Source: an uncultured Phycisphaerales bacterium
GTDB lineage: Bacteria > Planctomycetota > B15-G4
Assembly (NCBI GenBank): GCA_964537035.1
Contig: CAZIAK010000004.1
Span: 81,871-145,870 of the forward strand
Direction: 5' to 3'
DNA length: 64,000 nucleotides
The notes under the pieces are model-generated. The model ran no database searches. It was not told the origin of the DNA and worked only from the letters and a program-made list of their open reading frames with translations. Within the stretch, counting starts at the first letter, position 1. Every line of letters starts with the position of its first letter. The position numbers and the translations under genes are program-made. This document shows positions 4,535 to 21,850 of the stretch, piece after piece.

Positions 4535-4759
4535 CAAAGGGGCGCACCTGGCAGCCTGCCCGGTTGGACACAGATCTGGAGCCGGGTCTCTCGTGAATCT
4601 TGGGGACATCGGGGTGCGGTCAGAACGGGGCGAAAGCCCAAGAGTCCCGCTGAGCATAGCAGGAACGGGGCCAGAGCCACTTCTGACGCCAGCCGTCACC
4701 GATTCACAACAAGTCTCCTCGAGAACTGGAGATTGACAGAACGGCAGCGGCCGCATTCG

Positions 4760-6484
4760 ATGAGGGCCCTCCCCCGAGTCGAAAGTCCCGCCATGTACCG
4801 CCCCCTCTTGAGCTTTGCGCTCCTAGCTGCCTTCGTGACCCCGCTCGTGGCCCAGAGCAACATGAACGTCACCAGGCTCGGCAGACTCGATGAACACCCC
4901 GAGGGATACAACGACGTGTGGGGCTATGTGGCGCCGGACGGGCGTGAATACGCGCTCCTGGGTACACAGGACGGGCTCTCCGTCATCAACGCCAGCAACC
5001 CCCTCGCTCCCTACGAGGTGGCCTTCTTTCCCACCAACAACTGCCTCTGGCACGACATCAAGTCCTGGGGGCGGTACGTCTACGAGGCCACGGACTGCAG
5101 CTCAGGCGTCAGGGTCTTCGACATGCTCGACCCGGAGAACCCGGTCCTGGCCGGTGAGTTCGCCCAGTCGACCATCGACAACGCCCACAACATCCAGATC
5201 GACCTGGGCACCGGCCTGCTCTACACCGTGGGTGACGGCAACGGCTTCACGGTCTGGAACCTGGCCATCGATCCCGTCAACCCGCCGCTGGTCAAGGTCT
5301 GGAGTGGTGGCGGCAACAACTACATTCATGATCTCTACGTGTTCAACGGCAAGGCCCATACGGCGCGGATCTACGCTGGCAGCTACGACATCGTCAACGT
5401 GGCCAACCTGCCTGCGGTGAGCACCATCGGCTCGGCCCCCTCTGGCGCGAACTTCACCCACTCCACCTGGGTCAACAACGCCGAGACCACGGCGGTTGTG
5501 GTAGACGAGACCACGGGCAACCGGCACTTGTCGTTCTTCGACATCAGCGACCCCAGCAACCCCTCGCTGACGTCGTCGTACTCGGAGGACATCACCACAA
5601 GCCCCCACAACCCGTTCATCACGGATGATGAGATCTGCCACGTGTCCTGGTACTCAGAGGGCTACATCGCCCTGGACATGTCCGACCCTGCCAACCCGGT
5701 GAAGGTCGGTCGCTTTGACACGACCCCGGGGGCGGGCGCCCCGATCAGCTTGTTCACCGGCGCCTGGGGTTGCTACCCCTTCCAGCCCTCTGGCTTCATC
5801 TACATCAGCGACATCCAGAAGGGGCTGTACATTCTTCAGCTCAACTCTGCCTGCCCCACCGACCCGGGAGGTGCGCCGGTCTTGTGCAAGGTCTGGCCTG
5901 AGAACGTGAGCGTTCTCGAGAGCCCGCGCCACCCGGTGATCCTCACCGGCAATGACATGTCCGACGCGACCTCGATCACCGTGGGCGACGTGGTGCTCAC
6001 GCCGCCGCAGTTCACGGTCAAGAACCAGATGCTCTACTTCAACATGCCTCTGGTGAGTCAGCTCGGTCCCAACGCCATCTCGGTGACAACACCCTCCGGC
6101 ACCACCTCGGGAATGAGCATCAATGTCACCGCGCCCGTGGGCACGCCCCTGCTCGACAGCGGGCCCGCCCAGGCCGCAGACGGCAGCTTTCTTGAGGTCG
6201 CCGTGGGCAGCAACCCAGGGGATCTGCACTACATCGCCCTGGCTTTCTCCATCGGCCAGTCTGCCGTGCCTGGCAAGGTGACCTTCGACATCGGCAGCAA
6301 CTTCAGCGACCTGTTCCTGCAGCCCCTGCTCGTGGCCAACGGAGCCGGAGTGAGCGGCCTCGGGGTGGTGGTCCCGGCCATCGCCGTGGGCGCCACGGTC
6401 TACTGGCAGGCCGCCGTATTCGACCCCAACGCAGGCTGGCCCAGCCCCGCCACGAACTTCACCTCCACCACTTTCGTCCCCTGA
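4760..6484 (+). CDS. secreted LVIVD-repeat / choice-of-anchor-B-like beta-propeller protein with C-terminal IPT/TIG-like domain
   Basis: Track ORF 4490..6484. In-frame ATGs occur at 4760 and 4793; the signal peptide MYRPLLSFALLAAFVTPLVAQ begins at 4793. Repeated propeller-like motifs: GYNDVWGYVAPDGREYALLG, WHDIKSWGRYVYEA, AHNIQIDLGTGLLYTV, YIHDLYVFNGKAHTA, PHNPFITDDEICHVSWY. The C-terminal PVILTGNDMSDATSITV...ISVTTPSGTTSG resembles IPT/TIG. Confidence 0.7.
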   Translation: MRALPRVESPAMYRPLLSFALLAAFVTPLVAQSNMNVTRLGRLDEHPEGYNDVWGYVAPDGREYALLGTQDGLSVINASNPLAPYEVAFFPTNNCLWHDIKSWGRYVYEATDCSSGVRVFDMLDPENPVLAGEFAQSTIDNAHNIQIDLGTGLLYTVGDGNGFTVWNLAIDPVNPPLVKVWSGGGNNYIHDLYVFNGKAHTARIYAGSYDIVNVANLPAVSTIGSAPSGANFTHSTWVNNAETTAVVVDETTGNRHLSFFDISDPSNPSLTSSYSEDITTSPHNPFITDDEICHVSWYSEGYIALDMSDPANPVKVGRFDTTPGAGAPISLFTGAWGCYPFQPSGFIYISDIQKGLYILQLNSACPTDPGGAPVLCKVWPENVSVLESPRHPVILTGNDMSDATSITVGDVVLTPPQFTVKNQMLYFNMPLVSQLGPNAISVTTPSGTTSGMSINVTAPVGTPLLDSGPAQAADGSFLEVAVGSNPGDLHYIALAFSIGQSAVPGKVTFDIGSNFSDLFLQPLLVANGAGVSGLGVVVPAIAVGATVYWQAAVFDPNAGWPSPATNFTSTTFVP

Positions 6485-6560
6485 CCACCCGCCGTCACCC
6501 TGCGCCAAGAGCTGACCGAGAGCTCACGCGTCCAGCAGCCTCAGGCGCAGCCCCGTCGTA

Positions 6561-7595
6561 TCAGCGGAAGCCAGCCAGCAGACCGTCGAACTGCTCGCGG
6601 GACGGTCGCAGCTCGGCTTCGCCCAGCTGGCAAAGGGGCACGTCAGGCAAGCGCATGGTGTCGTCGAGGGCCTGGCTCGCCGGGTCGACGTAGATCAGGC
6701 CTGTGTAGACGTGTGCCTGGTCGACCCGATCTTTCTCCAGCTGCTTTCTGGCTGCCGCGATGTCGGTGGGGTCGTAGACGGTCGGGTCATCGGACAGGGC
6801 CGAGAGCCTGATCAGGCTGCCATCCGGCATGTCGACGGTGACGGACCCACCGGGGAGCTGCTCGACCTTCTCGGCGTCGTACTCAGGCACGAAGCCCAGC
6901 TCGTGCAGCTTGACGTTGTGCTCGCGCAGCCAGTCGAAGCCCTTGGTCGAGTCGGGCAGGTTGTTGAACGTCACGCACGGGCTGATGCAGTCGATGAACG
7001 CCAGGCCCTTGTGGTTGATGGCAGCGCGAATCAGCGAGGTCATCTGCTTCTGGTCGCCGCTGAAACTGCGCGCCACGAACCCACATCCCAGCTCGACCGC
7101 CAGCTTGCACAGGTCGATGTCGGAGTAGTCGTTGGTGTCGCCGCCCTTCTTGCGACTGCCCTTCTCTGACGTGGCCGAGAACTGGCCCTTGGTCAGGCCG
7201 TACACGCCGTTGTTCTCGACGATGTACACCATGTTGGTGTTGCGCCGCACCGCGTGCATGAACTGGCCGATGCCGATGGACGCCGTGTCGCCGTCGCCGG
7301 AGACGCCGATGGTGACCAGGTTCTTGTTGGCCATGTTCGCCCCGGTGGCGATGGACGGCATGCGCCCGTGCACCGAATTGATGCCATAGCCGTTGCCCAC
7401 GAAGTACGCCGGCGTCTTGCTGCTGCAACCGATACCCGAGGTCTTGACCACGTTGTACGGGTCGACCCCGGCGAGGAACACCGCCTGGATGATCTCGCGG
7501 GTGATCTGGTCGTGGCCACAGCCGAGGCACAGTGTGCTCTTGCTGTCGCCGGCGTAGTCCGCCTTGGTCAGGCCGATGGTGTTGGTGTCAGACAT
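6561..7595 (-). CDS. korB: 2-oxoacid:ferredoxin oxidoreductase, beta (TPP-binding) subunit
   Basis: 344 aa. Motifs CLGCGHDQI and GVSGDGDTASIGIGQFMHAVRRNTNMVYIVENNGVYGLTKGQ (TPP-binding GDG..N motif). The start overlaps the upstream alpha-subunit stop by 8 nt. Confidence 0.85.
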   Translation of the reverse strand: MSDTNTIGLTKADYAGDSKSTLCLGCGHDQITREIIQAVFLAGVDPYNVVKTSGIGCSSKTPAYFVGNGYGINSVHGRMPSIATGANMANKNLVTIGVSGDGDTASIGIGQFMHAVRRNTNMVYIVENNGVYGLTKGQFSATSEKGSRKKGGDTNDYSDIDLCKLAVELGCGFVARSFSGDQKQMTSLIRAAINHKGLAFIDCISPCVTFNNLPDSTKGFDWLREHNVKLHELGFVPEYDAEKVEQLPGGSVTVDMPDGSLIRLSALSDDPTVYDPTDIAAARKQLEKDRVDQAHVYTGLIYVDPASQALDDTMRLPDVPLCQLGEAELRPSREQFDGLLAGFR

Positions 7596-9411
7596 GTGCA
7601 GGCTCCGGCGCGCCGGCGCGCACGGCTTCGATGATGGGTTGGGCCGCCATGGGCAGGCCCGCGTAGTAGTTCAACTTGCGAATCTTGGTGGCCAGGTGTG
7701 GCAGCTTGATGCGAATGATGTCGGCCATCTGCCCGTCTCGGTTCTGCTCGGCCACGTAGACCACGTCGCACTCTTCGATGAACTGTGTCACCGCGTCGTG
7801 CAAGGGCAACGAACAGATGCGTAGCTCGCGCGTGGCCACCCCTTCGCCAGCCAAGACGTCCCGGGCCTCGGACACCGCGTAGGCCGTGCTGCCGTAGTGG
7901 ATGATGCCGATGGAGGCCTCGCCGTCGCCCGCAAGGATCGGAGCCGGCGTGTGAGACACCGAGCCATCGATCTTGCGCTTGATGCGCTCGATGACGGTCT
8001 TGTACTCGTCGGGATCTTCGGTGTAGCTCGCCGTCTCGGTGTGCCCTGATCCACGGGTGAAGTAGGGCGCGAGCGGATGGCGGGTTCCTGGCAGGGTGCG
8101 GTAGGGCACGCCGTCGCCGTCGACCTCCTTGTAGCGAGCAAACTCGCCGATCTCTTCGAGAGCTTTCTTGTCGAGCACCTTGCCCCGATCGAAATCGCGC
8201 TCGGTGTAGGGCAGCTCCTCGGAGATCCAGTAGTTCATGCCCATGTCCAGGTCGCTGAGCAGGAACACCGGCGTCTGGAAGCGCTCGGCCAGGTCGAAGG
8301 ACTGCTGGGCGTGCTCGTAGAGTTCGACGGGCCCGGCCGGCAGCAAGACGATGTGCTCGGTGTCGCCATGGGAGAGGAAGCGACAGAGGCTCACGTCACC
8401 CTGCTGGGTGCGGGTAGGCATGCCGGTGGACGGTCCCACACGCTGGACGTCGATCACCACCGCCGGAATCTCAGCGTAGTAGCCGAAGCCTGCGAACTCG
8501 GCCATGAGCGAGATGCCCGGGCCAGCGGTCGCCGTCATGGAGCGAGCGCCAGCCCACCCCGCACCGAGCGCCAAGCCGAGGGAGGCCAGCTCGTCTTCGG
8601 CCTGCACCGCCGCGAAGTTGACCTTGCCCTCTGTATCGGTGCGCGTCTTGCCGGCGATGCGAATCGTCTCTTCGCACACACTCGAGCTGGGCGTGATGGG
8701 ATACCAGCCCACGAACGAGCAACCACCCATGACGCAACCCAGACCCGTGGCCGTGTTGCCCTCGATGAACAGCTTGCCGTCGTTCATCTGGCGGGGCTCG
8801 ACCCTCAACGGGCAGGTCGCCGCGTCGAAGTTCTCATTCGCGTAGGCCAGGCCAGCCTTGACCACGTCCTGGTTGAGCGTGATCAGTTTGGGCTTCTTGG
8901 CGAACTGTTCGGCCACGATGGACATGACCACGTCGACGTCCATCTTGAGCAGGTGTGCCACCACGCCCACGTAGACCATGTTGGCCAGCAGCTTGCGCAA
9001 CCGGGGGTCTGGCGCGAACTCCTTCGCCAGCTTGGCGAAGGGCACGACGAACACGGTGATGTCGTCACGCCCGACGCTCTGCGACTGGGGCATCTTCTCG
9101 TCGATCAGCAGCACTCCGCCCTTGTCGACGGCGGCGATGTCTTTCGCCACGGTCTTCGGGTTGAGCGCGATGACGAACTCGGTGCGGCCGCTGCGCGCGC
9201 TGTAGCCCTTCTCCGAGACACGAATCAGGAACCACGTGGGCAGGCCTGAGATGTTGCTCGGAAAGAGGTTCTTGGGCGTGACGTGCACGCCCATGCGGAA
9301 GATCGACTTGGCCAGGATCAGGTTCGAGGAGGCAGAGCCCGAACCGTTCACTGTGGCCACGTTGATGGTGAAGTCGTTGATCGTGTCGTTGCCGCTCAAA
9401 GGCGAGGACAT
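7588..9411 (-). CDS. korA: 2-oxoacid:ferredoxin oxidoreductase, fused gamma/alpha subunit
   Basis: Track ORF 7588..9504 trimmed to ATG 9411 (MSSPLSGNDTINDFTINVATVNGSGSASSN..). Has an N-terminal POR-gamma-like segment followed by an alpha domain (GWYPITPSS, GPSTGMPTRTQQGD). Confidence 0.85.
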   Translation of the reverse strand: MSSPLSGNDTINDFTINVATVNGSGSASSNLILAKSIFRMGVHVTPKNLFPSNISGLPTWFLIRVSEKGYSARSGRTEFVIALNPKTVAKDIAAVDKGGVLLIDEKMPQSQSVGRDDITVFVVPFAKLAKEFAPDPRLRKLLANMVYVGVVAHLLKMDVDVVMSIVAEQFAKKPKLITLNQDVVKAGLAYANENFDAATCPLRVEPRQMNDGKLFIEGNTATGLGCVMGGCSFVGWYPITPSSSVCEETIRIAGKTRTDTEGKVNFAAVQAEDELASLGLALGAGWAGARSMTATAGPGISLMAEFAGFGYYAEIPAVVIDVQRVGPSTGMPTRTQQGDVSLCRFLSHGDTEHIVLLPAGPVELYEHAQQSFDLAERFQTPVFLLSDLDMGMNYWISEELPYTERDFDRGKVLDKKALEEIGEFARYKEVDGDGVPYRTLPGTRHPLAPYFTRGSGHTETASYTEDPDEYKTVIERIKRKIDGSVSHTPAPILAGDGEASIGIIHYGSTAYAVSEARDVLAGEGVATRELRICSLPLHDAVTQFIEECDVVYVAEQNRDGQMADIIRIKLPHLATKIRKLNYYAGLPMAAQPIIEAVRAGAPEPAHV

Positions 9412-10743: not shown

Positions 10744-11670
10744 CTACGAGAGAGTCACCGGGCAGACAAAGTCATCGGGCTTGATGGCCAGCACAGACGA
10801 GCAGGCCTGGGCGATGGTCCGCTCTGCAGTCGAGCCGATGACCACCCCGGCCAGGCCACCCCGGCCGATGGTGCCCAGGACGATCAGGGTCGCGTCGAGC
10901 TTGGCCTCGGCCTTGACGATCTGCTCTGAGGGTCGCCCCTCGGCCATCCACAGCTTGACCTCGACGCCCGCGTCTGCAGCCAGGCCGTCGGTCAGCGTGT
11001 GCAGCTCGGCCCATGCCTGCTCGCGACAGTCAGCCTCGTAAGACTGCACCTCTGCCGCATCGACGTTGCGCAGGCGCATGCCCCCCTCAAGCGGGTACTC
11101 GGGGACGTGCAGCACGTTCCATTTGCGCTCGCTGAGCGCGGCGATCGATGCGGACAGGCTCAGCACCCGGGACGCGGGCCCGTGATCCAGAGCCACCGCC
11201 GAGAGGATCGAGCCCTGTCCCTTGGGGGTCGGGTCCCGCGGAGCCACCCAGACCGGGCAGGGGCATTTTCGAATCAGCTGGGTGGCCATGTTGCTGACGA
11301 TCTCGCCCCCTGGCTCGCCAGAGCGCCTGGCGGAGACCACCGCCAGATCGTATCCACCCCGCAACACCTCGCGGATGACTTCGAGGAACGGGACACCGGC
11401 CTTGACCAGCACCTGGACGTCTCCAGCATCCAGGAGCGACACGAAGCGATCGGTGAGGCTCTTGCGCGCCGCTTCTGCCACGGCCTCGGCGTGGAGTTGC
11501 CCGTCAGGGACCACCGTGATCACGGTGACCTGGGCTGGCCGCTGCTGCTGCTTGTAAAGGCCGCTGACCACCTGGGCCAGGGCCTCGACCTGCTGGCCAG
11601 GACCGTCGGGCGCCCCAAACGACGGCTTGGTCACGTCGACCGTGACCAGGATCTTCGAGAACTCTTGCAT
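10744..11670 (-). CDS. tandem universal stress protein (UspA-family) domains
   Basis: Track ORF trimmed to ATG 11670 (MQEFSKILVTVDVT..). The second domain ends with the typical VLGTIGRGGLAGVVIGSTAERTIAQACSSVLAIKP. Confidence 0.8.
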   Translation of the reverse strand: MQEFSKILVTVDVTKPSFGAPDGPGQQVEALAQVVSGLYKQQQRPAQVTVITVVPDGQLHAEAVAEAARKSLTDRFVSLLDAGDVQVLVKAGVPFLEVIREVLRGGYDLAVVSARRSGEPGGEIVSNMATQLIRKCPCPVWVAPRDPTPKGQGSILSAVALDHGPASRVLSLSASIAALSERKWNVLHVPEYPLEGGMRLRNVDAAEVQSYEADCREQAWAELHTLTDGLAADAGVEVKLWMAEGRPSEQIVKAEAKLDATLIVLGTIGRGGLAGVVIGSTAERTIAQACSSVLAIKPDDFVCPVTLS

Positions 11671-11721
11671 GCAGGCGCCCTCCAGACGATCAGCGGCCGA
11701 CAAGCGGCGCCAAGCCAAGAA

Positions 11722-11796
11722 TGGAGCCGGGGATCGGATTCGAACCGACGACCTCAGCTTTACGAAAGCCGTGCTCTACCACTGAGCTACCCCGGC
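11722..11796 (-). tRNA. tRNA-Thr (anticodon CGU), CCA encoded
   Basis: Minus-strand sequence GCCGGGGUAGCUCAGUGGUAGAGCACGGCUUUCGUAAAGCUGAGGUCGUCGGUUCGAAUCCGAUCCCCGGCUCCA. It folds as a cloverleaf: acceptor GCCGGGG/CCCCGGC, D stem GCUC/GAGC, anticodon loop UUCGUAA, T loop UUCGAAU. Confidence 0.95.
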
Positions 11797-11898
11797 ACAC
11801 GTTTCTCTTGCGCCGCGAAGGCGGGAACCCTACCAAACAGCCCATTGATCGGCTACACGCCCGGGCCAGCTCACCGCACACAAGGCTATCATCACCCC

Positions 11899-12285
11899 GT
11901 GCACTATCTCATCGATGGCTACAACCTGGCCTTCTGGCTCGCGGGGGATGACGACCTCGACCCCCACCAGCTTCGGGAGCTGTTGCTGGGCAAGCTCGCG
12001 ACCAGCCGCCCCCCCGACGCCGAATCGCTGCACATCTACTGGGACGTCCGCAGACCCAACCCGGCGATCCCGGCCAACACCTACCTCGACTGGTGCACGA
12101 TGCACAACGTCCCCGACGCGGACGCAGCCATCATCGACGCCGTCTACGACGCCGAGGCGCCCCGCCGCTGCATGGTGGTCAGCCGAGACCGAGAGGTCAC
12201 CGGCCGCTCCCGCCAGCTAGGAGCCAAGGTCATGTCCCCCAAGGATCTGCTAGGCAAGACCCGAACCCGGCGTCGCCGCCGCTAG
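11899..12285 (+). CDS. NYN/YacP-like predicted RNA-binding nuclease domain protein with Arg-rich tail
   Basis: In frame with track ORF 10999..12285; probable start GTG 11899 (VHYLIDGYNLAFWL..). Contains DADAAIIDAV and MVVSRDREV, typical of YacP/NYN. C-terminal KTRTRRRRR. Confidence 0.6.
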   Translation: MHYLIDGYNLAFWLAGDDDLDPHQLRELLLGKLATSRPPDAESLHIYWDVRRPNPAIPANTYLDWCTMHNVPDADAAIIDAVYDAEAPRRCMVVSRDREVTGRSRQLGAKVMSPKDLLGKTRTRRRRR

Positions 12286-12536: not shown

Positions 12537-14594
12537 TTAGCCGTTGGCCATGGCCATGTCGTTGGACGACCCGCGCCCCAGGTTGCCCAGGGCCCGCGCC
12601 GCAGCCAGACCCAGGGGACCGGTGCCGCCCTCCTCGAGAGCAGCATTCACGGCGTCGCTCAGGGCATCGACCGCGCCAGAGGCACCACCGTGAGCAGCCC
12701 AGAGCTGACCCACCGCGTTCAGAGCCGCGATGCGCAGCTCGTCGGAACCACCACCCAGGACGATCTGCTCGACCTGCGAGAGACCGGCTCCCACGTGTCC
12801 TGCCAGGCCCAGGAGAGCGATCTTGACGTCGTCGCCACCCGCCCGCTCGAGCCCCTGCTCAATGCTGTTGGCCGAGCCAGCCGTGGCCGCGCTGGGCAGG
12901 TGCTGCAGCACCTGTGCGGCTGCGATGGCCCGTGAGGCTGCGTCACGAGCGAGCATGTCCGGCTCGCCAGCGACTGCCTGCAGGTCGGCCAAGGCCACCT
13001 CGGAGACCACTGCGGCCACCTGGTCGCCGTAGCGTGCGCTCACCAGATCGGACTCGTCCGTGACGATCACCACAGGCACGTCGGCGCTGCGGGGGTCGTT
13101 CAGCAGGCCGAAGATGACCGTGTCGAGCGTGACGCCGTTGAGGCCGTCGCGTACCACGATCACGTCCTTCGGCGGGAACTGCTTGGCCTTCATCAGGCCT
13201 CCGGCGGCCGTGGAGCTGCCCAGGTGCTGCCAGCCAGCGGCGTTGCCACTGAGCCCCGTGTCACCAATCGAGAACACCAGGCGATCGGGGATCGACTTGA
13301 GCGCCTCACCCAGCACCGAGACCACTCGGGCGTCAGCAAGACCCTGGGAGCCCAGAGAAAGTGCAGCAGCCACAGAAACGGCCTGGAAGTCGCTGTCGAG
13401 GGCGCCTCGCAAGGCTGCGACCTCGCCCTTGCCCGTGCCCATGCTGTCGATCAGAGCCGCAGCAGCAGCCGCCTGATCGTGCGACAACAAGGTGCCCAGA
13501 GCGGCGCCTCGGGCATCGCCAGCCATGGCCAGCTTGATCTCAAGGGACGGCAGCTCATCGGCGGCCGTGGACAGCAGATCGCTGTCCTGCAGGCCCGGGA
13601 CGTCGGCCCCAGCCATGATCTCGGCCTTCATGGACGCGTGCACCGCAGCCAGACCAGCACTGATCTCCTTGCCACCGCCCAGGGCCATGGCCTGGTCGAG
13701 GGTGCCCTCGGCCAGGTGCAGCTGGTACAGGCCGCCCAGAATGGCCTCGCCCATGAGGCCGCCGTCCTGCCAGCTCCAGGCCACCTGGCCATCGGCGTAG
13801 GGCTTGACGATGTCGGCGTCGCCCTGAACCCACTTGGACGCCAGGCGCAGAGCCAGGGTCGAGGGATCGCGGGTGCGCAGGCCCATGGCGTCGAGGTCGT
13901 CGCCCAGGCGGCTCAAGGACTCGGCGGCGATCTGCCGTACCACTGCTTCGTCGTCGCCCGCGGCCAACCAGGCCAGGGAGGCTGCGGCACGGACGTCGCC
14001 GATGGTGCCTAGCACCGAGGCCGCGTTGGCCCGGGTGGTCATGTCCTCAGAGTTCAGCGCTTGCATGAGCGGCGGCACCGCCCGATCACCGAGGCGAATG
14101 AGCGCCTTGATGGCCAGAACACGACGATTCGTGTCGGAGCGGTCAGCCAGGGGACCCAGCAGCGCGGGCACAGCCCACTCGCCGTAGGTCGCATTCAGCT
14201 CGCTCAGGGCCTGCTCAGACTCAAGGGAGCCAGCAGACAGATAGGTGTCGACCAGGTCGCGCGCCCCGCCGGGATCGCTGAGCACGGCGCTGCGGCCCAC
14301 CTTCGCGATGCCCAGGAAGCGCTTGGCCAGGGCACCGACCTCGCCGCCGTCCATGAGCATGGCCAGGATCTGGTCCTGCTCGAGCTTCTGCCAGAAGCGG
14401 AAAGCGTCTTCGTTGCCCGGGTTCTGGGCCAGGGCGTCCTTGAAGGCGTCGATGGCCCCCTGGGTGTCGCCTGACTCATAGGCAGCCACGCCGGTCTCGA
14501 ACAGGCTTTCGGCGTCCTGGGCGGCTGCGGAAGGCAGCGCCAGGAACAGGGCTGCAGACGGAACCACGAAGCGACAAAGCACGGAACGGAGCAT
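12537..14594 (-). CDS. secreted TPR + HEAT-repeat (PBS-lyase-type) protein
   Basis: Track ORF 12537..14804 trimmed to ATG 14594. Signal peptide MLRSVLCRFVVPSAALFLALPSAAAQ. N-terminal TPR-like helices are followed by HEAT_2-like repeats (LGDRAVPPLMQALNSEDMTTRANAASVLGTIGDVRAAASL..). Confidence 0.7.
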   Translation of the reverse strand: MLRSVLCRFVVPSAALFLALPSAAAQDAESLFETGVAAYESGDTQGAIDAFKDALAQNPGNEDAFRFWQKLEQDQILAMLMDGGEVGALAKRFLGIAKVGRSAVLSDPGGARDLVDTYLSAGSLESEQALSELNATYGEWAVPALLGPLADRSDTNRRVLAIKALIRLGDRAVPPLMQALNSEDMTTRANAASVLGTIGDVRAAASLAWLAAGDDEAVVRQIAAESLSRLGDDLDAMGLRTRDPSTLALRLASKWVQGDADIVKPYADGQVAWSWQDGGLMGEAILGGLYQLHLAEGTLDQAMALGGGKEISAGLAAVHASMKAEIMAGADVPGLQDSDLLSTAADELPSLEIKLAMAGDARGAALGTLLSHDQAAAAAALIDSMGTGKGEVAALRGALDSDFQAVSVAAALSLGSQGLADARVVSVLGEALKSIPDRLVFSIGDTGLSGNAAGWQHLGSSTAAGGLMKAKQFPPKDVIVVRDGLNGVTLDTVIFGLLNDPRSADVPVVIVTDESDLVSARYGDQVAAVVSEVALADLQAVAGEPDMLARDAASRAIAAAQVLQHLPSAATAGSANSIEQGLERAGGDDVKIALLGLAGHVGAGLSQVEQIVLGGGSDELRIAALNAVGQLWAAHGGASGAVDALSDAVNAALEEGGTGPLGLAAARALGNLGRGSSNDMAMANG

Positions 14595-14694
14595 GATCGA
14601 GCTCGCTGAAGAGTTGGGTTCGGGGCCCCACGTAACGGCCGGAGTCGTCGGTCCGCAGAGCGAGGCACAAATCTTAGGCAGGGACCCTGATTTA

Positions 14695-16707
14695 TCAAGG
14701 CCGACCGGCGACGTCACGCGATGACCGCCCCGGAAGAGCGAGGAACAGGGCCAGGCCACTGCCCCCCAGGGCGACCCAGGCGGCCGCCGGCGCAGCCCCC
14801 TCAAAGATCAGTTCACCGGGCAGAAGCACGCATCCCAGGACGAAAACGGTGGCTGCGAGCCAGGCGATCACCAGCCGGGGCACGGCCCATGGCGAGGGGC
14901 GATCGGCTCCCCGAAGAGGGCCCCAGAAACCCACAGGCTGCACCAGATCGTAGAAGCGGCGCAGCTGGCCAGGGTCCACCGGGGGCGTCGCCAGGGTCAC
15001 CGGCACGACCACCAGGGTCGAGAAGACGACCACAACCAGCAGGGTCCCGGCAAAGACAGGCTGCCCTCCTGCGACCAGCTGATCCGGGAGCAGACCCGCT
15101 CCCCACTCGGGCCAGCGCTGCAGGGCCCAGGTGACCGCGCCCGAGGTGATCAGGGCCGCGATCTCGGACCAGGCGTTGATCCGCCACCAGAGCCAGCGGG
15201 CCAGATAGACCACGCCCACCCCTGAGAAGAGGGCGGTGAAGACGTCGAACATGCCCCTCACGCTGTCCGAGGCGGCGGCAAAGAAGACGGCCAGCGCCAG
15301 CACCAGGGGACCGGTCACCCGGCCAGCCCGCACGTAGTGCTTTTCGGGCTCGTTGGGGCGTAGAAAGCGCCTGTAGAGGTCGTTCACCAGGTAGGAGGAG
15401 GCCAGGTTCACGTGGGTGTCGATGGTCGACATGAAGGCGGCCAGGAACGACGCGGCGAGCAGCCCTAGCAGGCCGGAGGGCAGAAAGCGGAGCATCATCT
15501 CGGGGTAGGCCGCCTCGTCGTCCGTGCTGGCCAGGACCTGGCCGGCGCGGACCTCATCGCCCGTGGAGACCAGGGGCACGGCGTCCCAACCTTCGACGGC
15601 GGTGGCTGGCAGGGCCACCTCGTGGACCGCTCCCAAGCCGTCGGTGAGCACCATGGTCACCTCGTTGACCGAGGTCACCAGGCCGTCCACCGGGCTGGCC
15701 ACCTGGGCCGGAGGCAGCACCAGCAGGGACGCCAGGGCCACGAGAATCCAGGGCCAGGGGCGCACGGCGTTGTGAGCCACTGCGTACCAGAGCGTGGCCA
15801 GCCAGGCGTGGCGCTCGTTCTTGCTGGCCAGGATGCGCTGGACCATGACGCCGCTGCCGTCCGCGTTCTTGTTGGCGAACCAGATCACCCCCACGAACAC
15901 GGCGAACTGCCAGAAGCTGGCTGTCCAGGTCACCGGGTCGAACAGCTCCACGCCCTCGGTGTTGGGCGCCATGGACAGCTTGTCCGCCGAGAGGGGGTTC
16001 GCTCGCAAGGCCTCGACAAGGCCGGCGGTACCGCCGAAGGCGTTGACCACCATGACCATGAGTGTGATCGAACCCGCCAGGGCCACTCCGAACTGGACGA
16101 AGTCGGTGAGCACCACACCCCAGAGGCCGGCGACCTCGGAGTAGATCAGGGCCAGCAAGGCGCAGCCCAGCATGACCGCCCAGACCGGCGTGATGGCCAC
16201 GGGCCCCAGGCTGAAGAGAGGCTCGCTGCTCAGATCGAAGAGCACGGTGAGCACCTTGGTCATGCCCAGGATCACCCAGCCCATGACGAAGCAGTGCATG
16301 AACACCACCTGGTAGATGCTCTTGAAGCCGCGCAAGAACCGAGCGGGACGGCCGGAGTAACGCAGCTCCATGAACTCGATGTCGGTGAGCACGGCCGAGC
16401 GGCGCCAGAGGCGGGCGAAGAGCACCACCACCAGCAGGGTGCTCATGATGTAGGCCCACCAGCGCCAGTTGCCCGCCACGCCGCCGGTGCGGGTCCAGCT
16501 GGAGATGACCAGGGGCGTATCCGAGGCGAAAGACGTGGCCACCATGGAGGTGCCCGCCAGCCACCAGGGCAGCTGCCGCCCGGAGAGAAAGAAGTTCTCC
16601 ACGGTGCCACGGCTCTTGCGGCCGACCCACACACCGATGCCCAGGGCGAACAACAGGTAGGCGCCGATGACGGCCCAGTCGAGGCCGGTGAACCCTGCGC
16701 GACTCAC
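14695..16707 (-). CDS. sodium:solute symporter (SSS) family transporter with an inserted ~65-aa soluble domain
   Basis: 670 aa. The GTG start at 16707 overlaps the secretin TGA (GTGA). SSS motifs: FFLSGRQLPWWLAGTSMVATSFASDTP, VQRILASKNERHA, AASFLAAFMSTIDTHVNL. Residues ~332-396 (nt 15520..15714) have no counterpart in canonical SSS loops. Confidence 0.85.
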   Translation of the reverse strand: MSRAGFTGLDWAVIGAYLLFALGIGVWVGRKSRGTVENFFLSGRQLPWWLAGTSMVATSFASDTPLVISSWTRTGGVAGNWRWWAYIMSTLLVVVLFARLWRRSAVLTDIEFMELRYSGRPARFLRGFKSIYQVVFMHCFVMGWVILGMTKVLTVLFDLSSEPLFSLGPVAITPVWAVMLGCALLALIYSEVAGLWGVVLTDFVQFGVALAGSITLMVMVVNAFGGTAGLVEALRANPLSADKLSMAPNTEGVELFDPVTWTASFWQFAVFVGVIWFANKNADGSGVMVQRILASKNERHAWLATLWYAVAHNAVRPWPWILVALASLLVLPPAQVASPVDGLVTSVNEVTMVLTDGLGAVHEVALPATAVEGWDAVPLVSTGDEVRAGQVLASTDDEAAYPEMMLRFLPSGLLGLLAASFLAAFMSTIDTHVNLASSYLVNDLYRRFLRPNEPEKHYVRAGRVTGPLVLALAVFFAAASDSVRGMFDVFTALFSGVGVVYLARWLWWRINAWSEIAALITSGAVTWALQRWPEWGAGLLPDQLVAGGQPVFAGTLLVVVVFSTLVVVPVTLATPPVDPGQLRRFYDLVQPVGFWGPLRGADRPSPWAVPRLVIAWLAATVFVLGCVLLPGELIFEGAAPAAAWVALGGSGLALFLALPGRSSRDVAGRP

Positions 16708-18155
16708 CGACGCAGCGGGTCGATCAGTGCCCGGCTGGGCACCTTGATGGTCGGCTCGACAAGGAACAGGATCTCGGTGGTCTGCTCGTCACTCAGCCGG
16801 CTCTTGAAGAACCAGCCCAGCAGGGGGATGTCGCCGAGAAAGGGCACCTTGGTCAGGGTCTCGATGTGCTGCTTCTGGCGCAGACCACCGATGGTGAAGC
16901 TCTGCCCGCTGTACACGTGCAGGGTCGTGTCGGTGGTGCGCTGACTGATGATCGGCGAGGACACGTCCACGCCGTTGATCACGAAGGGTGTTGCACCGGT
17001 CTGGGACGAGACATCGATGGAGAGATCGACCCGGATCAGGTCATCGGCCACGATGAAGGGGATCAGCTCGACGGTCACGCCGGTCTGTTCGAACTCGGTG
17101 GTCACGGTGGGGTTCGTCACCGAGCCCTTGGCCGTGAACACGGGCAGCTTGTCGCCGGTGGTCAGCCTGGCGTGATGGCCGTTGAGCACGGTCACCTTCG
17201 GCGTGCTGAGCAGCTCGGCGGCGCCGATGGTCTGCAGCACGCTGATGATGCCCTTGACCGAGAAGCTGTCGTGCACGCCCTGCAGGCTCAGCAAGAAGCC
17301 GGGCAGGCTGATCGGGCCGTCAGGGAAGCTCGAGAACCCAGCTCCCGAACCGTCCGAAGCTCCATCATCCAAGAAGGGGATGCCCGAGCCGAAACCTCCA
17401 GCGGGTGGGTTCGTGTTCGGGTCATAGGGCAGGTTGCGGTTCTCGAGCTCGGCCACCTTGAGCTTGGCGTCCCAATCGATCTTGTCGCTCAGGTTCACCT
17501 CGACGATGGTGATCTCGATCTCGATCTGGGGCTGATCGCCGAGCACCTTCTGCAACAGCTCGTCGATGAACAGCAAGGTGGGCGGCGGCGCGGTGACGTG
17601 GATCACGTCGGCGATGTCCGGCTTCATCAATCCGTTGCGTGAGCCGAACTTGTCCGAGACCTCATCCTTGTAGAAGTTCGGCTGCAGCGACCAGCGGATG
17701 ATCTCGGTGGCCGGGCGCTCCGGAAAGTTCGGTGTGTTCTGCTCTGCGGGGAAGTCGGCCACGTAGGCCCGCATCAGCGAGACGATGTCGTTGCCCCGGC
17801 CGGCGCGCACCGAGTACATCTTGGTCCACGAGCCATCGAGACCATGAATGACCTGACGGCCCAGGCGGTGGAAGTCCGTGGGCGCCTGGTCGGCCAGGAA
17901 GTCGGGCTCGAGATCGTCGGGCGTGGCCGCGTCGAAGAACGAGAGCTGGTCGCCGCCTTCGTCGTCAGCCTGGGTCTCGGCCACCAGATCGAGGGGGTCG
18001 ATCGTGGGCCGGTCTTGAGACGTGGGGCTCACCGCGATCACGGGCGAATCAGAGGACAGGCTCCAGGACGCGTTGGGGGCCTTGACCTCCTCGGTCACGC
18101 AGCCCGCAGCGGACAGACAGAACGCGGCGGCGAGAAGGCGTCTCATCGTAGTCAT
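16704..18155 (-). CDS. lipoprotein secretin (GspD/PilQ-family C-terminal domain), orphan
   Basis: MTTMRRLLAAAFCLSAAGC lipobox, then an acidic linker. Secretin domain from QIEIEITIVEVNLSD to LTKVPFLGDIPLLGWFFKSRLSDEQTTEILFLVEPTI. Confidence 0.8.
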   Translation of the reverse strand: MTTMRRLLAAAFCLSAAGCVTEEVKAPNASWSLSSDSPVIAVSPTSQDRPTIDPLDLVAETQADDEGGDQLSFFDAATPDDLEPDFLADQAPTDFHRLGRQVIHGLDGSWTKMYSVRAGRGNDIVSLMRAYVADFPAEQNTPNFPERPATEIIRWSLQPNFYKDEVSDKFGSRNGLMKPDIADVIHVTAPPPTLLFIDELLQKVLGDQPQIEIEITIVEVNLSDKIDWDAKLKVAELENRNLPYDPNTNPPAGGFGSGIPFLDDGASDGSGAGFSSFPDGPISLPGFLLSLQGVHDSFSVKGIISVLQTIGAAELLSTPKVTVLNGHHARLTTGDKLPVFTAKGSVTNPTVTTEFEQTGVTVELIPFIVADDLIRVDLSIDVSSQTGATPFVINGVDVSSPIISQRTTDTTLHVYSGQSFTIGGLRQKQHIETLTKVPFLGDIPLLGWFFKSRLSDEQTTEILFLVEPTIKVPSRALIDPLRR

Positions 18156-18221
18156 GACTCGGTCGGCGCCCTGCCCAGAGAAAGAAATGCCCCAGGAAAG
18201 CCCCGGGGACTCGTCAGCCCA

Positions 18222-18932
18222 TCAGGAGGGAAGAGCCGCAATGACCCTATCGGTGACATCGGGGGCCGGCTCCAGGCGAGAAGTCACCCCACCGGTCTGG
18301 ACCACGGCCTGCAAGGCTTCATCGCGCACCACGGCCTTCAGGGCATGCTGATAGACCTTCTCCCACTCTGCTTTCAGAAAGTGGTACTGGGTGTCGTCGG
18401 GATCGAGATTGAGCCAGTCGCGATAGGCCGGAATGGCCTGCAGGACGGCTTCTTTATCCATCTCGGCGACGCCATCACGGGCCTTGGCCTTGCCCGCCCA
18501 GAGCGAGCCGTCGATGTGATAGACGGGCAGCAACTCGATCACCGCCCAGGTCTGATCTTCGATGGCGATCTCACCACCGGAGACTCCGCCCAGGTGGGTG
18601 ATGACGTGGAGGTCTTCGCTGTCGGCCACAGCAGCCAGGGCGCTCTTGACGCCCTTCTTGGCCTGGGAGAACAGCTGCTTGCCCCGACCTTCCGCACGGT
18701 CGAGACCCAGCTCTTGCATGCGCATGAAAGCCGGGTGGTTGCCGTAGACCTCGTTGATGTCGACCTCGGCGCCCCGGGTGGGATTGCTCAAGGGGCCGAA
18801 CACCACCGTGGTCTTGTCGATGGTCAGCTCGCTCTGGCTGACTTCAGTGGCCAGGACAGGGAGCGCCAGAATCACCATCAATGAGAGCGTTGTTGCCCCG
18901 GCCCGCAGGGTTCGACTTGTGGTGATTCGCAT
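18222..18932 (-). CDS. secreted protein with internally duplicated Skp/OmpH-like domain (putative periplasmic chaperone)
   Basis: Track ORF trimmed to ATG 18932 (MRITTSRTLRAGATTLSLMVILALPVLA signal peptide). The two halves align with each other: VDINEVYGNHPAFMRM...VKSALAAVA...IEDQTWAVIELL versus MDKEAVLQAIPAYRDW...YQHALKAVV...DVTDRVIAAL. The C-terminal DVTDxVI pattern resembles OmpH. Confidence 0.45.
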   Translation of the reverse strand: MRITTSRTLRAGATTLSLMVILALPVLATEVSQSELTIDKTTVVFGPLSNPTRGAEVDINEVYGNHPAFMRMQELGLDRAEGRGKQLFSQAKKGVKSALAAVADSEDLHVITHLGGVSGGEIAIEDQTWAVIELLPVYHIDGSLWAGKAKARDGVAEMDKEAVLQAIPAYRDWLNLDPDDTQYHFLKAEWEKVYQHALKAVVRDEALQAVVQTGGVTSRLEPAPDVTDRVIAALPS

Positions 18933-19158
18933 GGTGCACTCCCTCGTTCTCGAGACGCCCAGATCGAGAACCTGTCTATTAGCGCTGAGTATATGCCTTG
19001 GCACGACCTTCGTGCCGTTTCTGATCCGAGCCGAATCGGTCAGAGGGGGATCTCTCCTCCAAGCGCAGGCAGAAACCAGGGGGCCAGCTCTAGGGTCGAC
19101 CCTCTGCCTCTGTTCACTTGAGCAGAAGCAGAGGCGGGGCAGAAGAGCTCGGCGGCCA

Positions 19159-19193
19159 GCCACCCTGTAGCGCGTGCAGCGACACAGGGTGGC
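19159..19193 (-). terminator. putative stem-loop downstream of pnp
   Basis: 10-bp stem gccaccctgt / acagggtggc (19159..19168 and 19184..19193) with a 15-nt loop, 21 nt after the pnp stop. No clear U-tract. Confidence 0.3.
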
Positions 19194-19213
19194 CAGCAGC
19201 CACAGCGGTCAGG

Positions 19214-21691
19214 TCAGGAAGAGCTCTCGCCCTCAGACCCGGCGCCGCTACCCACGGCCTCCGCACCCTCTTCGACAGCCTTCATCGACAGGCGAATGCG
19301 CTTGTTCTCGTCGATATCGAGAACGGTCACCTTGACCACGTCGCCCATGGAGTACGCGGTCTCCGGCTCACGGATGTTCTCGGGCAACATCTCCGAGACG
19401 TGGCAGAGACCATCGGTGCCTCGGGAGACCTCGACGAAGATGCCGTAGGACTTCAGCCCGGTGATCTTGCCCTCGTAGACCTCACCCTTCTTGGGCATGA
19501 CCTTGGGCTCGGACGAGCGGCTGTCGCGCCCACCGCCACCGCGGCTCTCACGACGACCACCTCCGCCGCCACCAGAACCGCCGCCGGTCTCGACCTCGGC
19601 ATCAGAGTCTTCGCCCGCCAGCCGCACCCGACCGAAGTCGTCGATGCTGATGACCTTGACGTTGAGCTCCTGGCCCACTTCGAGCACGTCGTGGACGTCC
19701 TTGACGTGCTCCTTCGAGATGGCGCTGATATGCAGCAGGCCTTCCTTGCCCGGGAAGATCTCGACAAATGCGCCGAACTCCCGCAGCGAGACGACCTTGC
19801 CCTTGTACATGGCACCCAGCTCGGCATCGCCAGTGATGGCTTCGACCGCGGCAGTCGCCGAGTCGATGTCACCCTCGGGACCGGAGGCGATGTTGACCAC
19901 GCCTTCGTCGCTGACCTCGATGCGCACCTTGAAGTCAGCCTGCAGCTGACGGATGACCTTGCCACCAGGGCCGATGAGAGCACCGATCTTCTCGACCGGA
20001 ATGGTGCGAGTCACGATCTGCGGTGCCCACTTGCTCACGCTGTCGCGAGCCGAGGAGATGGCCTCGTTCATCTTGCCGAGGATGTGCAGCCGCCCCGCCT
20101 TGGCCTGGGCCAGGGCTCGACGCAGCAGGTCAGCAGACAGACCCTTGATCTTGATGTCCATCTGCAACGCGTTCACGCCTTCGGCCGTACCGGTGACCTT
20201 GAAGTCCATGTCGCCGTGGTGATCTTCGCTGCCGAGGATGTCACTCAGGATGTAGTGGTCGTCGCCATCTTCGATCAGTCCCATGGCGATGCCCGCAACC
20301 GGCGAGCGGATCGGGCAACCGGCGTCGAGCAGGGCCAGCGAGCCGCCGCAGACCGAGGCCATGGAGGAGCTACCGTTGCTCTCCAGGATCTCACTCACCA
20401 CGCGCACGCTGTATGGGAACGTCTCGGGGTCGGGCATGACCATGTTGACCGAGCGTTCGGCCAGGTTGCCGTGCCCCACTTCGCGACGGGACGTGCCCGT
20501 CATGCGGCGCACTTCGCCGACGCAGAAGGGCGGGAAGTTGTAGTGCAGCATGAAGCGCTTGCTGTACTCGTCCATCAGACCGTCGACGATCTGCTCGTCG
20601 CGACCGGTGCCCAGGGTCACGCTGACCAGGGCCTGGGTCTCACCGCGGGTGAACAGCGTCGAACCGTGGGTCCTGGGCAGGACACCCATCTCGATCTCGA
20701 TCTGGCGAATCTCATCGAGAGCGCGACCGTCTGAGCGACGGCCCTTCTTGATGATCGAGCCACGGGTCAGCTCGGCCTCGAGGTCGTGGAAGGCGTTGCC
20801 CACGTGCTTCTTGGCAGCGGCGAACTCATCGCCTTCGAGACCGTCGAGCAGCTTCTCGCGAGCCTCGTTGGAGACCGCCTTCATGGCCGCCTTCTTCTCG
20901 AACTTGCCGTCGACCGCCATGGCGGCCTCGAACGCATCGTGATAGGCGTTGACCTGATCGGTGAACGGGTTGGCGACCTCTTCCTTCACCTCTTGCTTGG
21001 GCTTGCCGACCTTGTCGACCAGCTCCTGGATCATGTCGCAGAGCTGCTGGATGTAGCCGTGGCCAAACATGATCGCGTCGGCCATGACCTCTTCGGGCAG
21101 CTCAAGGGCGCCCGCTTCGACCATGGTCACGGCGGTCTTGGTGCCGCTGACCATGAGGTCGAGGGTGCTCGCGGCCAGCTGCTCAACCGTGGGGTTGATC
21201 ACGAACTCGCCGTCGATGTAGGCCACCCGCACCGTGGCGCCAGGGCCCTGGTAGGGGATGGTCGAGATGCTCAGGGCGGCCATGGAGGCCACACCGGCGA
21301 GCACACCGGGCTCACTCTCGCGGTCGTAGCTCACGACCTGGTTGATGATCTGCACCTCGTTGCGATACGTGGGCGAGAACATGGGGCGCACGGGGCGGTC
21401 GATCGAGCGGGCAATCAAGATTTCAGGATCGCGGGGCCGCATCTCACGCTTGAAGAAACCGCCCGGCACCTTGCCGGCTGCGTAGGTCTTCTCGCGGTAT
21501 TCGATCGTCAGGGGGAAGAAGTCGAGGTCAGGGCGACCCTTCGAACTCTGCACGGTGGACAGCACTGCGGTCTCGCCATAGGTGGCGAAGATGGCGCCGT
21601 CTGCTTGCTTGGCCATGCGGCCGGTTTCGAGGGTCAGGGTGCGGCCGCCGATTTCGCAGCTCACACTGGTGGGGTTGTTCAGTTTCGTCAT
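19214..21691 (-). CDS. pnp: polyribonucleotide nucleotidyltransferase (PNPase) with C-terminal Gly/Arg linker and a second S1 domain
   Basis: Track ORF trimmed to ATG 21691 (MTKLNNPTSVSCEIGGRTLTLETGRMAKQADGA). Two RNase PH domains, a KH domain (IPVEKIGALIGPGGKVIRQL) and an S1 domain (YKGKVVSLREFGAFVEIFPGKEGLLHIS). These are followed by GGGSGGGGGGRRESRGGGGRDSR and a second S1-like domain (VYEGKITGLKSYGIFVEVSRGTDGLCHVS). Confidence 0.9.
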   Translation of the reverse strand: MTKLNNPTSVSCEIGGRTLTLETGRMAKQADGAIFATYGETAVLSTVQSSKGRPDLDFFPLTIEYREKTYAAGKVPGGFFKREMRPRDPEILIARSIDRPVRPMFSPTYRNEVQIINQVVSYDRESEPGVLAGVASMAALSISTIPYQGPGATVRVAYIDGEFVINPTVEQLAASTLDLMVSGTKTAVTMVEAGALELPEEVMADAIMFGHGYIQQLCDMIQELVDKVGKPKQEVKEEVANPFTDQVNAYHDAFEAAMAVDGKFEKKAAMKAVSNEAREKLLDGLEGDEFAAAKKHVGNAFHDLEAELTRGSIIKKGRRSDGRALDEIRQIEIEMGVLPRTHGSTLFTRGETQALVSVTLGTGRDEQIVDGLMDEYSKRFMLHYNFPPFCVGEVRRMTGTSRREVGHGNLAERSVNMVMPDPETFPYSVRVVSEILESNGSSSMASVCGGSLALLDAGCPIRSPVAGIAMGLIEDGDDHYILSDILGSEDHHGDMDFKVTGTAEGVNALQMDIKIKGLSADLLRRALAQAKAGRLHILGKMNEAISSARDSVSKWAPQIVTRTIPVEKIGALIGPGGKVIRQLQADFKVRIEVSDEGVVNIASGPEGDIDSATAAVEAITGDAELGAMYKGKVVSLREFGAFVEIFPGKEGLLHISAISKEHVKDVHDVLEVGQELNVKVISIDDFGRVRLAGEDSDAEVETGGGSGGGGGGRRESRGGGGRDSRSSEPKVMPKKGEVYEGKITGLKSYGIFVEVSRGTDGLCHVSEMLPENIREPETAYSMGDVVKVTVLDIDENKRIRLSMKAVEEGAEAVGSGAGSEGESSS

Positions 21692-21850
21692 TGTCTTTGT
21701 CTTTGTTTCCGGATCGACGCAGAGATGGAGTCCCGATTGGACCCCGAGCGCCGATTGCTTGAACTGGGTGCGCAAATTGCGCACGGACCCCAAGCCTGTG
21801 CTTGAAGCCCGTTGGTGCTCAGCGGGGGGCGAGACGCCCCCGTGCAGGGG
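21692..21850 (-). promoter_or_regulatory. rpsO-pnp intergenic leader with two GC hairpins
   Basis: Hairpin 21825..21841 (7-bp GC stem, 3-nt loop) lies 9 nt after the rpsO stop. A perfect palindrome gtgcgca-aat-tgcgcac sits at 21768..21784. The position matches the rpsO terminator and pnp leader arrangement known from E. coli. Confidence 0.4.

Follow-up and report, generated by a model that had tools for sequence, protein, structure and literature searches.

A sandwich-barrel hybrid domain predicted in the outer-gate loop of a sodium/solute symporter from an uncultured Phycisphaerales bacterium

What is a folded beta domain doing in the gate loop of a membrane transporter? The question is raised by one gene in a 64,000-nucleotide stretch of DNA (here, the window) from an uncultured Phycisphaerales bacterium (GenBank assembly GCA_964537035.1; contig CAZIAK010000004.1; positions 81,871 to 145,870 of the forward strand). 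The gene encodes a protein of 670 amino acids (aa) of the sodium/solute symporter (SSS) family. A sequence-only reading of the window had noticed in this protein a lipoyl/HlyD-like insertion of about 65 aa, and had proposed that the insertion could, as a periplasmic adaptor-like domain, dock a partner such as the secretin or the HEAT protein encoded alongside. We report that a sandwich-barrel hybrid (SBHM, or barrel-sandwich) domain in external loop 4 (eL4) is an undescribed variant of the SSS family, common to more than 100 relatives; a literature search found no account of an SBHM domain in an SSS loop.

On the basis of sequence matches and structural models, we assign the protein to the SSS family (TC 2.A.21), with Na+-coupled uptake as its predicted activity. 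It is of the SLC5 type and has the LeuT fold, with about 15 transmembrane (TM) helices. The Pfam model SSF (PF00474) scored 101.1 bits (cut-off, 22.8) in two aligned stretches, one on each side of the insert, and was alone in the precomputed Pfam architecture; the narrower model TIGR00813 scored 117.8 bits, under its cut-off of 184. The AlphaFold model of the whole protein had a predicted local distance difference test score (pLDDT) of 90.4 (93 to 96 in the insert) and a predicted template-modelling score (pTM) of 0.91. A Foldseek search with this model retrieved SGLT2, SGLT1, vSGLT, SiaT, NIS, and CHT1 (E values, 2.6e-19 to 1e-9), with target-normalised TM-scores of 0.7 to 0.78 against solved SSS structures.

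Among the 120 best homologues of the symporter, 113 contain the inserted segment. From the other seven (P0066, P0099, P0102, P0106, P0114, P0115, and P0118; 42 to 43% identity; 579 to 609 aa) it is missing precisely, with clean flanks, and the segment is therefore a true domain insertion and no artefact of alignment or gene calling. Together with the exact translation and the SSF match, these insert-less relatives bear out the description of an SSS transporter with an insertion of about 65 aa.

The fold of the insert was assessed by profile searches and modelling. A Pfam scan of the insert by itself returned barrel-sandwich families exclusively: RnfC_N (E value, 8.8e-6; 26.1 bits, slightly over the gathering cut-off of 25.6), Biotin_lipoyl_2 (9.4e-6), and further matches to PTS_EIIA_1, NQRA_N, ATP-synt_ab_Xtn, Biotin_lipoyl, and Peptidase_M23. 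When a profile built from 71 homologous inserts was searched against PDB sequences, the best match was the SBHM of RNA polymerase beta (E value, 1.7e-7), followed by RNA polymerase beta', NusG domain II, MacA (1.3e-3), NqrA, and RnfC. Modelled in isolation, the insert formed six strands (pLDDT, 85.6) and superposed on the RNA polymerase beta SBHM with TM-scores of 0.70 to 0.75 and root mean square deviations of 2.6 to 3.1 Å. The Pfam families, PDB matches, and TM-scores agree with the barrel-sandwich fold first read from the sequence, and residues 332 to 396 are predicted to be an autonomous SBHM domain.

The same profile gave 287 matches at an E value of ≤1e-3 in a library of 1.84 billion representatives. 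Of the matches that were scanned with Pfam, three proved to be RNA polymerase beta proteins or beta-beta' fusions; many further matches measured about 2,000 to 3,000 aa, with the match positioned as in polymerase proteins. Such polymerase-type proteins of about 2,000 to 3,000 aa are, judged by the profile, the nearest non-SSS matches of the insert. In P0139 and P0148, both beta-beta' fusions, the profile aligned to the beta SBHM at approximately residues 545 to 620. The top multi-stretch library matches (P0121, P0125, P0128, and P0129) were repetitive DUF5666/CusF/KOW-like proteins, which we judged to be compositional and rejected. Profile and model comparisons both place the nearest kin of the insert among the polymerase SBHMs and not among HlyD/AcrA.

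Other identities were considered for the insert and rejected. As for a membrane-fusion adaptor, the domain has only 65 aa in total, only beta-strands separate its half-motifs (DSSP of the models), and RND_mfp (14.4 bits; cut-off, 94.9) and type_I_hlyD (14.4 bits; cut-off, 208.65) aligned to the C-terminal half-motif alone. The HlyD/AcrA-like label of the sequence-only reading thus suits the fold and not the adaptor likeness, the alpha-hairpin being absent and the RND_mfp score far below its cut-off. A lipoyl or biotinyl carrier (PF00364) is contradicted by the lack of any Lys in the insert (and in 53 of 114 homologous inserts), by the absence of a conserved Lys column, by a Biotin_lipoyl score of 14.7 bits (gathering cut-off, 22.1), and by the periplasmic location. 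For an M23/LytM peptidase, the score was 12.8 bits (cut-off, 28.7; Pfam E value, 0.14), no conserved HxxxD/HxH His/Asp ligands were present, and the sole His, H362, occurred in 24 of the 114 homologues.

Conservation and charge were computed over these 114 homologous inserts. Both half-motifs that had drawn attention to the segment are there (Table 1), with P339, G342, V344, V386, G389, and A393 conserved at 85 to 100%. The insert is acidic (one R and nine D/E), with a mean net charge of −6.1 over the homologues. Its mean pairwise identity (0.35) lay within the range for the other periplasmic loops (0.30 to 0.36; core, 0.5 to 0.8), and its conserved positions are chiefly the fold-defining Gly, Pro, and Val. 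Given identity at the level of periplasmic loops and conservation chiefly of fold residues, a structural role is suggested over a conserved binding site; that is, the role of the insert may be structural and not ligand-specific.

The position of the domain was determined by alignment to the family profile, in which vSGLT residues 7 to 315 and 323 to 483 align before and after the insert. Escherichia coli PutP was aligned to the same profile in order to place the gate and Na+-site residues: E398 and Y401 correspond to PutP E311 and F314, and the predicted Na+-site residues S427 and T428 are invariant and at least 90% conserved among homologues, respectively. According to a review of the SSS family, the loop joining core TM7 and TM8 shuts the outer pathway, with PutP E311 at its tip and F314 as an anchor (PMC7918813), and EL4 of hSGLT2 forms part of the outer gate (PMC12322204). 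The PutP and vSGLT alignments corroborate the earlier placement of the insertion in eL4, just ahead of the Na+-site helix, and locate the SBHM domain, as predicted from sequence, in the N-terminal arm of this periplasmic loop, two residues ahead of the gate tip. Lys and Arg numbered 22 in the 114 residues of cytoplasmic loops and 6 in the 190 residues of periplasmic loops. Because of the homology-based position, this charge bias, and the acidic insert, the SBHM domain is predicted to be periplasmic; the homology and the charge counts support the side of the membrane that the sequence-only reading had chosen.

Table 1. Coordinates of the features discussed (window positions, or positions in the named locus)
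Feature	Positions	Strand	Evidence and remarks
SSS-family symporter gene, 670 aa	14695..16707	minus	GTG start; open reading frame call
Inserted SBHM domain, residues 332-396 (65 aa)	15520..15714	minus	Translation PPAQVASPVDGLVTSVNEVTMVLTDGLGAVHEVALPATAVEGWDAVPLVSTGDEVRAGQVLASTD; profile and model
N-terminal half-motif SPVDGLV, residues 338-344	15676..15696	minus	P339 96%, G342 100%, V344 85% conserved
C-terminal half-motif VSTGDEVRAGQVLA, residues 380-393	15529..15570	minus	V380 86%, G383 82%, V386 92%, G389 86%, A393 96% conserved
W374 codon	15586..15588	minus	84% W; sole strongly conserved residue beyond the fold-defining half-motifs
eL4 gate tip EAAY (E398, Y401)	15505..15516	minus	Invariant; begins two residues past the SBHM domain; aligned with PutP N309-A-E311-R-V-F314
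Na+ (Na2) site pair S427/T428, core TM8	15424..15429	minus	Aligned with PutP S340/T341 and vSGLT ...IVSS...
Periplasmic loop, residues 529-553 (TM11-TM12)	15049..15123	minus	About 10 aa longer in every insert-bearing homologue
Periplasmic loop eL2 with 14-aa beta-hairpin, residues 158-173	16189..16236	minus	Strands 165-167 and 170-172 in the model
Secretin gene, 483 aa	16704..18155	minus	Lipoprotein-like signal; Pfam Secretin, 4.8e-38
Secreted TPR and HEAT-repeat protein, 685 aa from MLRSV start	12537..14594	minus	HEAT_2, 2.2e-15; TPR_2; downstream of the symporter gene
Skp/OmpH-like periplasmic protein, start uncertain	18222..18935	minus	Upstream of the secretin gene; weak Pfam OmpH match, 0.012
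L089, AnmK–MurQ-like SIS–SSS	3985-7758		
L022, AnmK–GH3 … SSS	1758-7752		
L030, GH3–SSS	4172-7776		GH3 is NagZ-like
L035, MurQ and AnmK upstream of SSS			
L052, MurQ–SSS–AnmK			

The relation of the insert to the neighbouring periplasmic loops was then examined. The loop at residues 529 to 553 measured 22 to 26 aa in SBHM-bearing sequences and 10 to 16 aa in six of the seven SBHM-less ones (21 aa in the seventh, P0114). The W374 loop had a pLDDT of 76 when the domain was modelled alone and of 93 when the whole protein was modelled. In an exploratory analysis of mutual information with average product correction, 24 of the 40 top pairs linking the insert to positions elsewhere in the protein fell in periplasmic loops, which contain about 14% of the variable columns; the loop at residues 532 to 551 accounted for 10 of the 40 and ranked first among the regions co-varying with the insert. 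The longer loop, the conserved W374, the context-dependent pLDDT, and, more tentatively, the co-variation speak for an integration of the domain into the transporter.

To delimit the distribution of the domain, GTDB species genomes were scanned with two subfamily motifs, FFLSGRxLPW and RWxWWR, which identified at least 597 loci spread over many phyla. We examined 86 loci, namely the best 80 of the at least 597 and six that had been fetched earlier. The SBHM domain was present in 23 of the 86, chiefly in Planctomycetota and in Acidobacteriota/Thermoanaerobaculia; the others had an eL4 loop of 17 to 33 aa or an unrelated insertion at the same site. Judging from these sequences, eL4 is an insertion hot spot in the subfamily. 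The unrelated insertions measured 67 to 68 aa (L039, L045, L058, and L082) or 128 aa (L086), belonged to Bacteroidales, Marinimicrobia, and Chitinophagales, and were judged helical by sequence alone.

In an unbootstrapped neighbour-joining tree, computed from 538 core columns after removal of the insert, every SBHM-bearing sequence fell in one clade of 135, which divides into sub-clades of 49 (the window included) and 86 sequences. The sister of this clade is an insert-less group of 11 members. The SBHM domain was apparently gained a single time, by the ancestor of the clade of about 135 members, mainly of Planctomycetota and Acidobacteriota. One sequence inside the SBHM-bearing clade, from a Planctomycetales metagenome-assembled genome (L025; SSS gene at 5971-7821), has an eL4 region of only about 39 aa, possibly through secondary loss or degeneration of the domain.

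The gene neighbourhood bears on the proposed docking of a secretin or HEAT partner. The secretin stop codon overlaps the symporter start by 4 nucleotides (GTGA; 16704-16707) in the window, and the same overlap was found in L001 and L088. The secretin scored under every NCBIfam type cut-off (e.g., GspD, 132 bits; cut-off, 351), and no partner genes of type II secretion, type IV pilus, or type III secretion systems were adjacent to it in the loci examined. In one sub-clade, the symporter gene is, as read from the overlapping frames, translationally coupled to an orphan secretin. The gene order rpsO–pnp–Skp-like–secretin–SSS–HEAT/TPR–EamA is common to the window (12537-21800, minus strand), L001, L017, L087, and L088, among which PNPase identity is 67 to 74%; the Skp-like homologues in the equivalent position of the latter four loci are 38 to 42% identical to that of the window. 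All five loci examined in the 49-member sub-clade, the window included, had the Skp-like–secretin–SSS–HEAT arrangement.

A search for secretin and HEAT homologues over 89 loci (tblastn and custom hidden Markov models) recovered them in L001, L017, L087, and L088 alone; the only other find was an unrelated secretin in L036, encoded on the opposite strand. In the 86-member SBHM-bearing sub-clade, none of the 19 loci, 13 of them with 2 kb or more of sequence upstream, had a secretin or HEAT gene nearby. A Pfam scan of 69 neighbouring open reading frames (ORFs) from 15 non-secretin SBHM-bearing loci, called crudely as greedy longest ORFs in high-GC DNA, detected neither secretin nor HEAT families and no recurring neighbour family except DUF1800, in three closely related loci. 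In three closely related SBHM-bearing loci, an ORF of about 540 aa begins at the final base of the SSS frame (L015, 3245-4867; L018, 2443-4065; L019, 2590-4185); it is probably the DUF1800 protein of the Pfam scan.

Since the domain is retained in the sub-clade that lacks the secretin, the insertion is older than the secretin association, and docking does not explain it. The correlation between insertion and secretin that the sequence-only reading had set beforehand as a test fails, the association being limited to one sub-clade, and an adaptor role towards the secretin or HEAT protein finds no support in the 19 loci above. On this comparative evidence, the SBHM domain would not have arisen as a docking site for the adjoining secretin. 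Another periplasmic element follows the secretin more closely: the eL2 loop measured 22 aa in most of P0001 to P0046 (maximum, 28 aa) and 8 aa in all other homologues, insert-bearing or insert-less. As far as sequence can tell, the eL2 hairpin is restricted to the secretin-linked sub-clade and is a closer correlate of the secretin than the SBHM domain is.

Hints at the substrate came from the sister clade, in which all five insert-less loci lie beside peptidoglycan-recycling genes (Table 1). GH20 and SASA neighbours were each found at one SBHM-bearing locus; the window has neither AnmK nor MurQ. These gene associations suggest that the wider clade imports cell-wall-derived (peptidoglycan) amino sugars. 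No paper tying an SSS transporter to AnmK and MurQ was found in the literature search, and the papers on Tannerella MurT do not state its transporter family. The sister-clade operons thus point to the import of sugars from cell-wall recycling by an SSS-type transporter, a role with no earlier link to the SSS family in the papers searched.

The explanation that we consider best, and to which we give about an even chance, is that the SBHM domain is intrinsic to the transporter and rides on the outer gate as a periplasmic cap, by a mechanism that we infer. The domain would be a rigid cap docked on the adjoining periplasmic loops, probably via the W374 loop. Tethered straight to the eL4 gate tip, it would move with, or bias, the closure of the outer gate, and it may also shield the vestibule. 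Several points weigh against this explanation. The contacts of the domain with other loops are ones that we infer; the mutual-information signal is driven mainly by a few columns (549 and 639) and carries no phylogenetic correction; and the neighbour-joining tree bears no support values. The tight secretin operon in the window's sub-clade, with its 4-nucleotide overlap, allows a co-opted partner-binding role, and the low surface conservation fits a functionless decoration equally well. In the latter case, eL4 would simply tolerate insertions, and the domain would be a near-neutral, stably folding passenger with adjacent N and C termini, kept without a specific function. Such a passenger would accord with the unrelated insertions at the same site in other lineages (67 to 68 aa; 128 aa), with an insert identity equal to that of ordinary periplasmic loops, and with the one apparent loss within the clade (L025). 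We nevertheless regard it as rather unlikely: the fold has been kept over about 135 sequences, down to approximately 42% overall identity, with that single apparent loss; the loop at residues 529 to 553 is extended in parallel; W374 is conserved; and the model is both confident and context-dependent. If the domain were mere decoration, the finding would amount to an annotation refinement only.

A docking adaptor, at least in the secretin-linked sub-clade, would have the SBHM domain contact the secretin, the HEAT/TPR protein, or the Skp-like protein and so couple the symporter to an outer-membrane channel. The four-gene block kept in the window and four other loci despite the PNPase divergence, the secretin/SSS overlap in three of them, the membrane or periplasmic nature of all four products, and the additional eL2 hairpin all speak for some partnership. 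The domain, however, predates the association and persists in the 86-member sub-clade, where none of the 19 loci has either gene; it is the eL2 hairpin and not the SBHM domain that tracks the secretin; and the entire rpsO-pnp...EamA region is syntenic, hence the adjacency partly reflects shared ancestry. In AcrA, MacA, and HlyD, it is the alpha-hairpin that contacts the outer-membrane partner, and the SBHM domain lacks this element of true membrane-fusion proteins. Docking is, in our judgement, improbable. A larger proposal, that the operon of the window's sub-clade is a trans-envelope uptake machine in which the secretin is used for import and is coupled to the Na+ symporter via the SBHM domain, the eL6 extension, and the eL2 hairpin, with peptidoglycan-derived or other bulky sugars as possible cargo, is very unlikely, although the finding would gain interest if it were true. 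The domain might alternatively pre-bind, above the vestibule, a bulky periplasmic substrate such as a peptidoglycan-derived amino sugar or a muropeptide, in the manner of a degenerate LytM/M23 domain, and so serve substrate capture or selectivity. The operons of the insert-less sister clade (AnmK, MurQ-like, and GH3/NagZ-like), the single GH20 and SASA neighbours, the strongly acidic insert, and the fold that it has in common with M23/LytM (with the weak Pfam match above) are compatible with capture. Yet no pocket-like set of residues is conserved, W374 standing alone beyond the fold residues; the M23 score lies below its cut-off, with no conserved metal motif and with H362 in the 24 of 114 homologues already mentioned; the insert has its nearest kin among RNA polymerase SBHMs and not among LytM domains; and no neighbour family is common to the SBHM-bearing loci. 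We hold capture to be quite unlikely, too.

The SBHM cap can be compared with known systems. SSS proteins of the PutP/vSGLT/SGLT type are like the window protein in their LeuT-fold core, gate-tip Glu and aromatic anchor, and Ser/Thr Na+ site. Their eL4 contains short helices only, whereas the window protein has a 65-aa all-beta SBHM domain ahead of the tip and adds the longer loop at residues 529 to 553 and, in its sub-clade, the eL2 hairpin. Elaborated extracellular loops, EL4 among them, also lie over the outer vestibule as the lid of eukaryotic SGLT1 and SGLT2. The SGLT lid is built from EL3, EL4, and EL6. It consists of extended loops and disulfides and is of independent origin, whereas the window protein has a discrete SBHM domain. 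The lipoyl-like domain of AcrA, MacA, and HlyD is, like the insert, a periplasmic barrel-sandwich hybrid with both half-motifs; unlike these proteins, the insert has no alpha-hairpin, beta-barrel, or membrane-proximal domain and lies within the transporter polypeptide. Biotinyl and lipoyl carriers have in common with the insert the fold and the C-terminal GD-V--GQ-LA motif, but the modifiable Lys is absent from the insert.

In RNA polymerase, the trigger loop is mobile, and SBHM insertions within it modulate its movement (bioRxiv 10.1101/2021.01.27.428476; PMC11077087). SI3 of the E. coli RNA polymerase beta' subunit, which we compare along with the lineage-specific SBHMs of beta and beta', is, like the insert, an SBHM element within a mobile functional loop; it follows the motion of that loop and adjusts its conformational equilibrium. 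SI3, however, belongs to a cytoplasmic enzyme and comprises two tandem SBHMs, whereas the insert is a single SBHM domain in a membrane transporter. By analogy, SI3 may be the best functional parallel for the SBHM cap, and the extracellular lid of eukaryotic SGLTs a second one. Given that eL4 is the outer-gate lid in LeuT-fold transporters, a foldable domain two residues from its tip offers a natural experiment in gate tuning, and the SBHM domain serves as a marker for a large, uncharacterised clade of SSS proteins from Planctomycetota and Acidobacteriota.

Downstream of the HEAT gene, the window also contains a tRNA-Thr gene (CGT; 11722-11796, minus strand), which is spanned by a long spurious plus-strand ORF (10999-12285).

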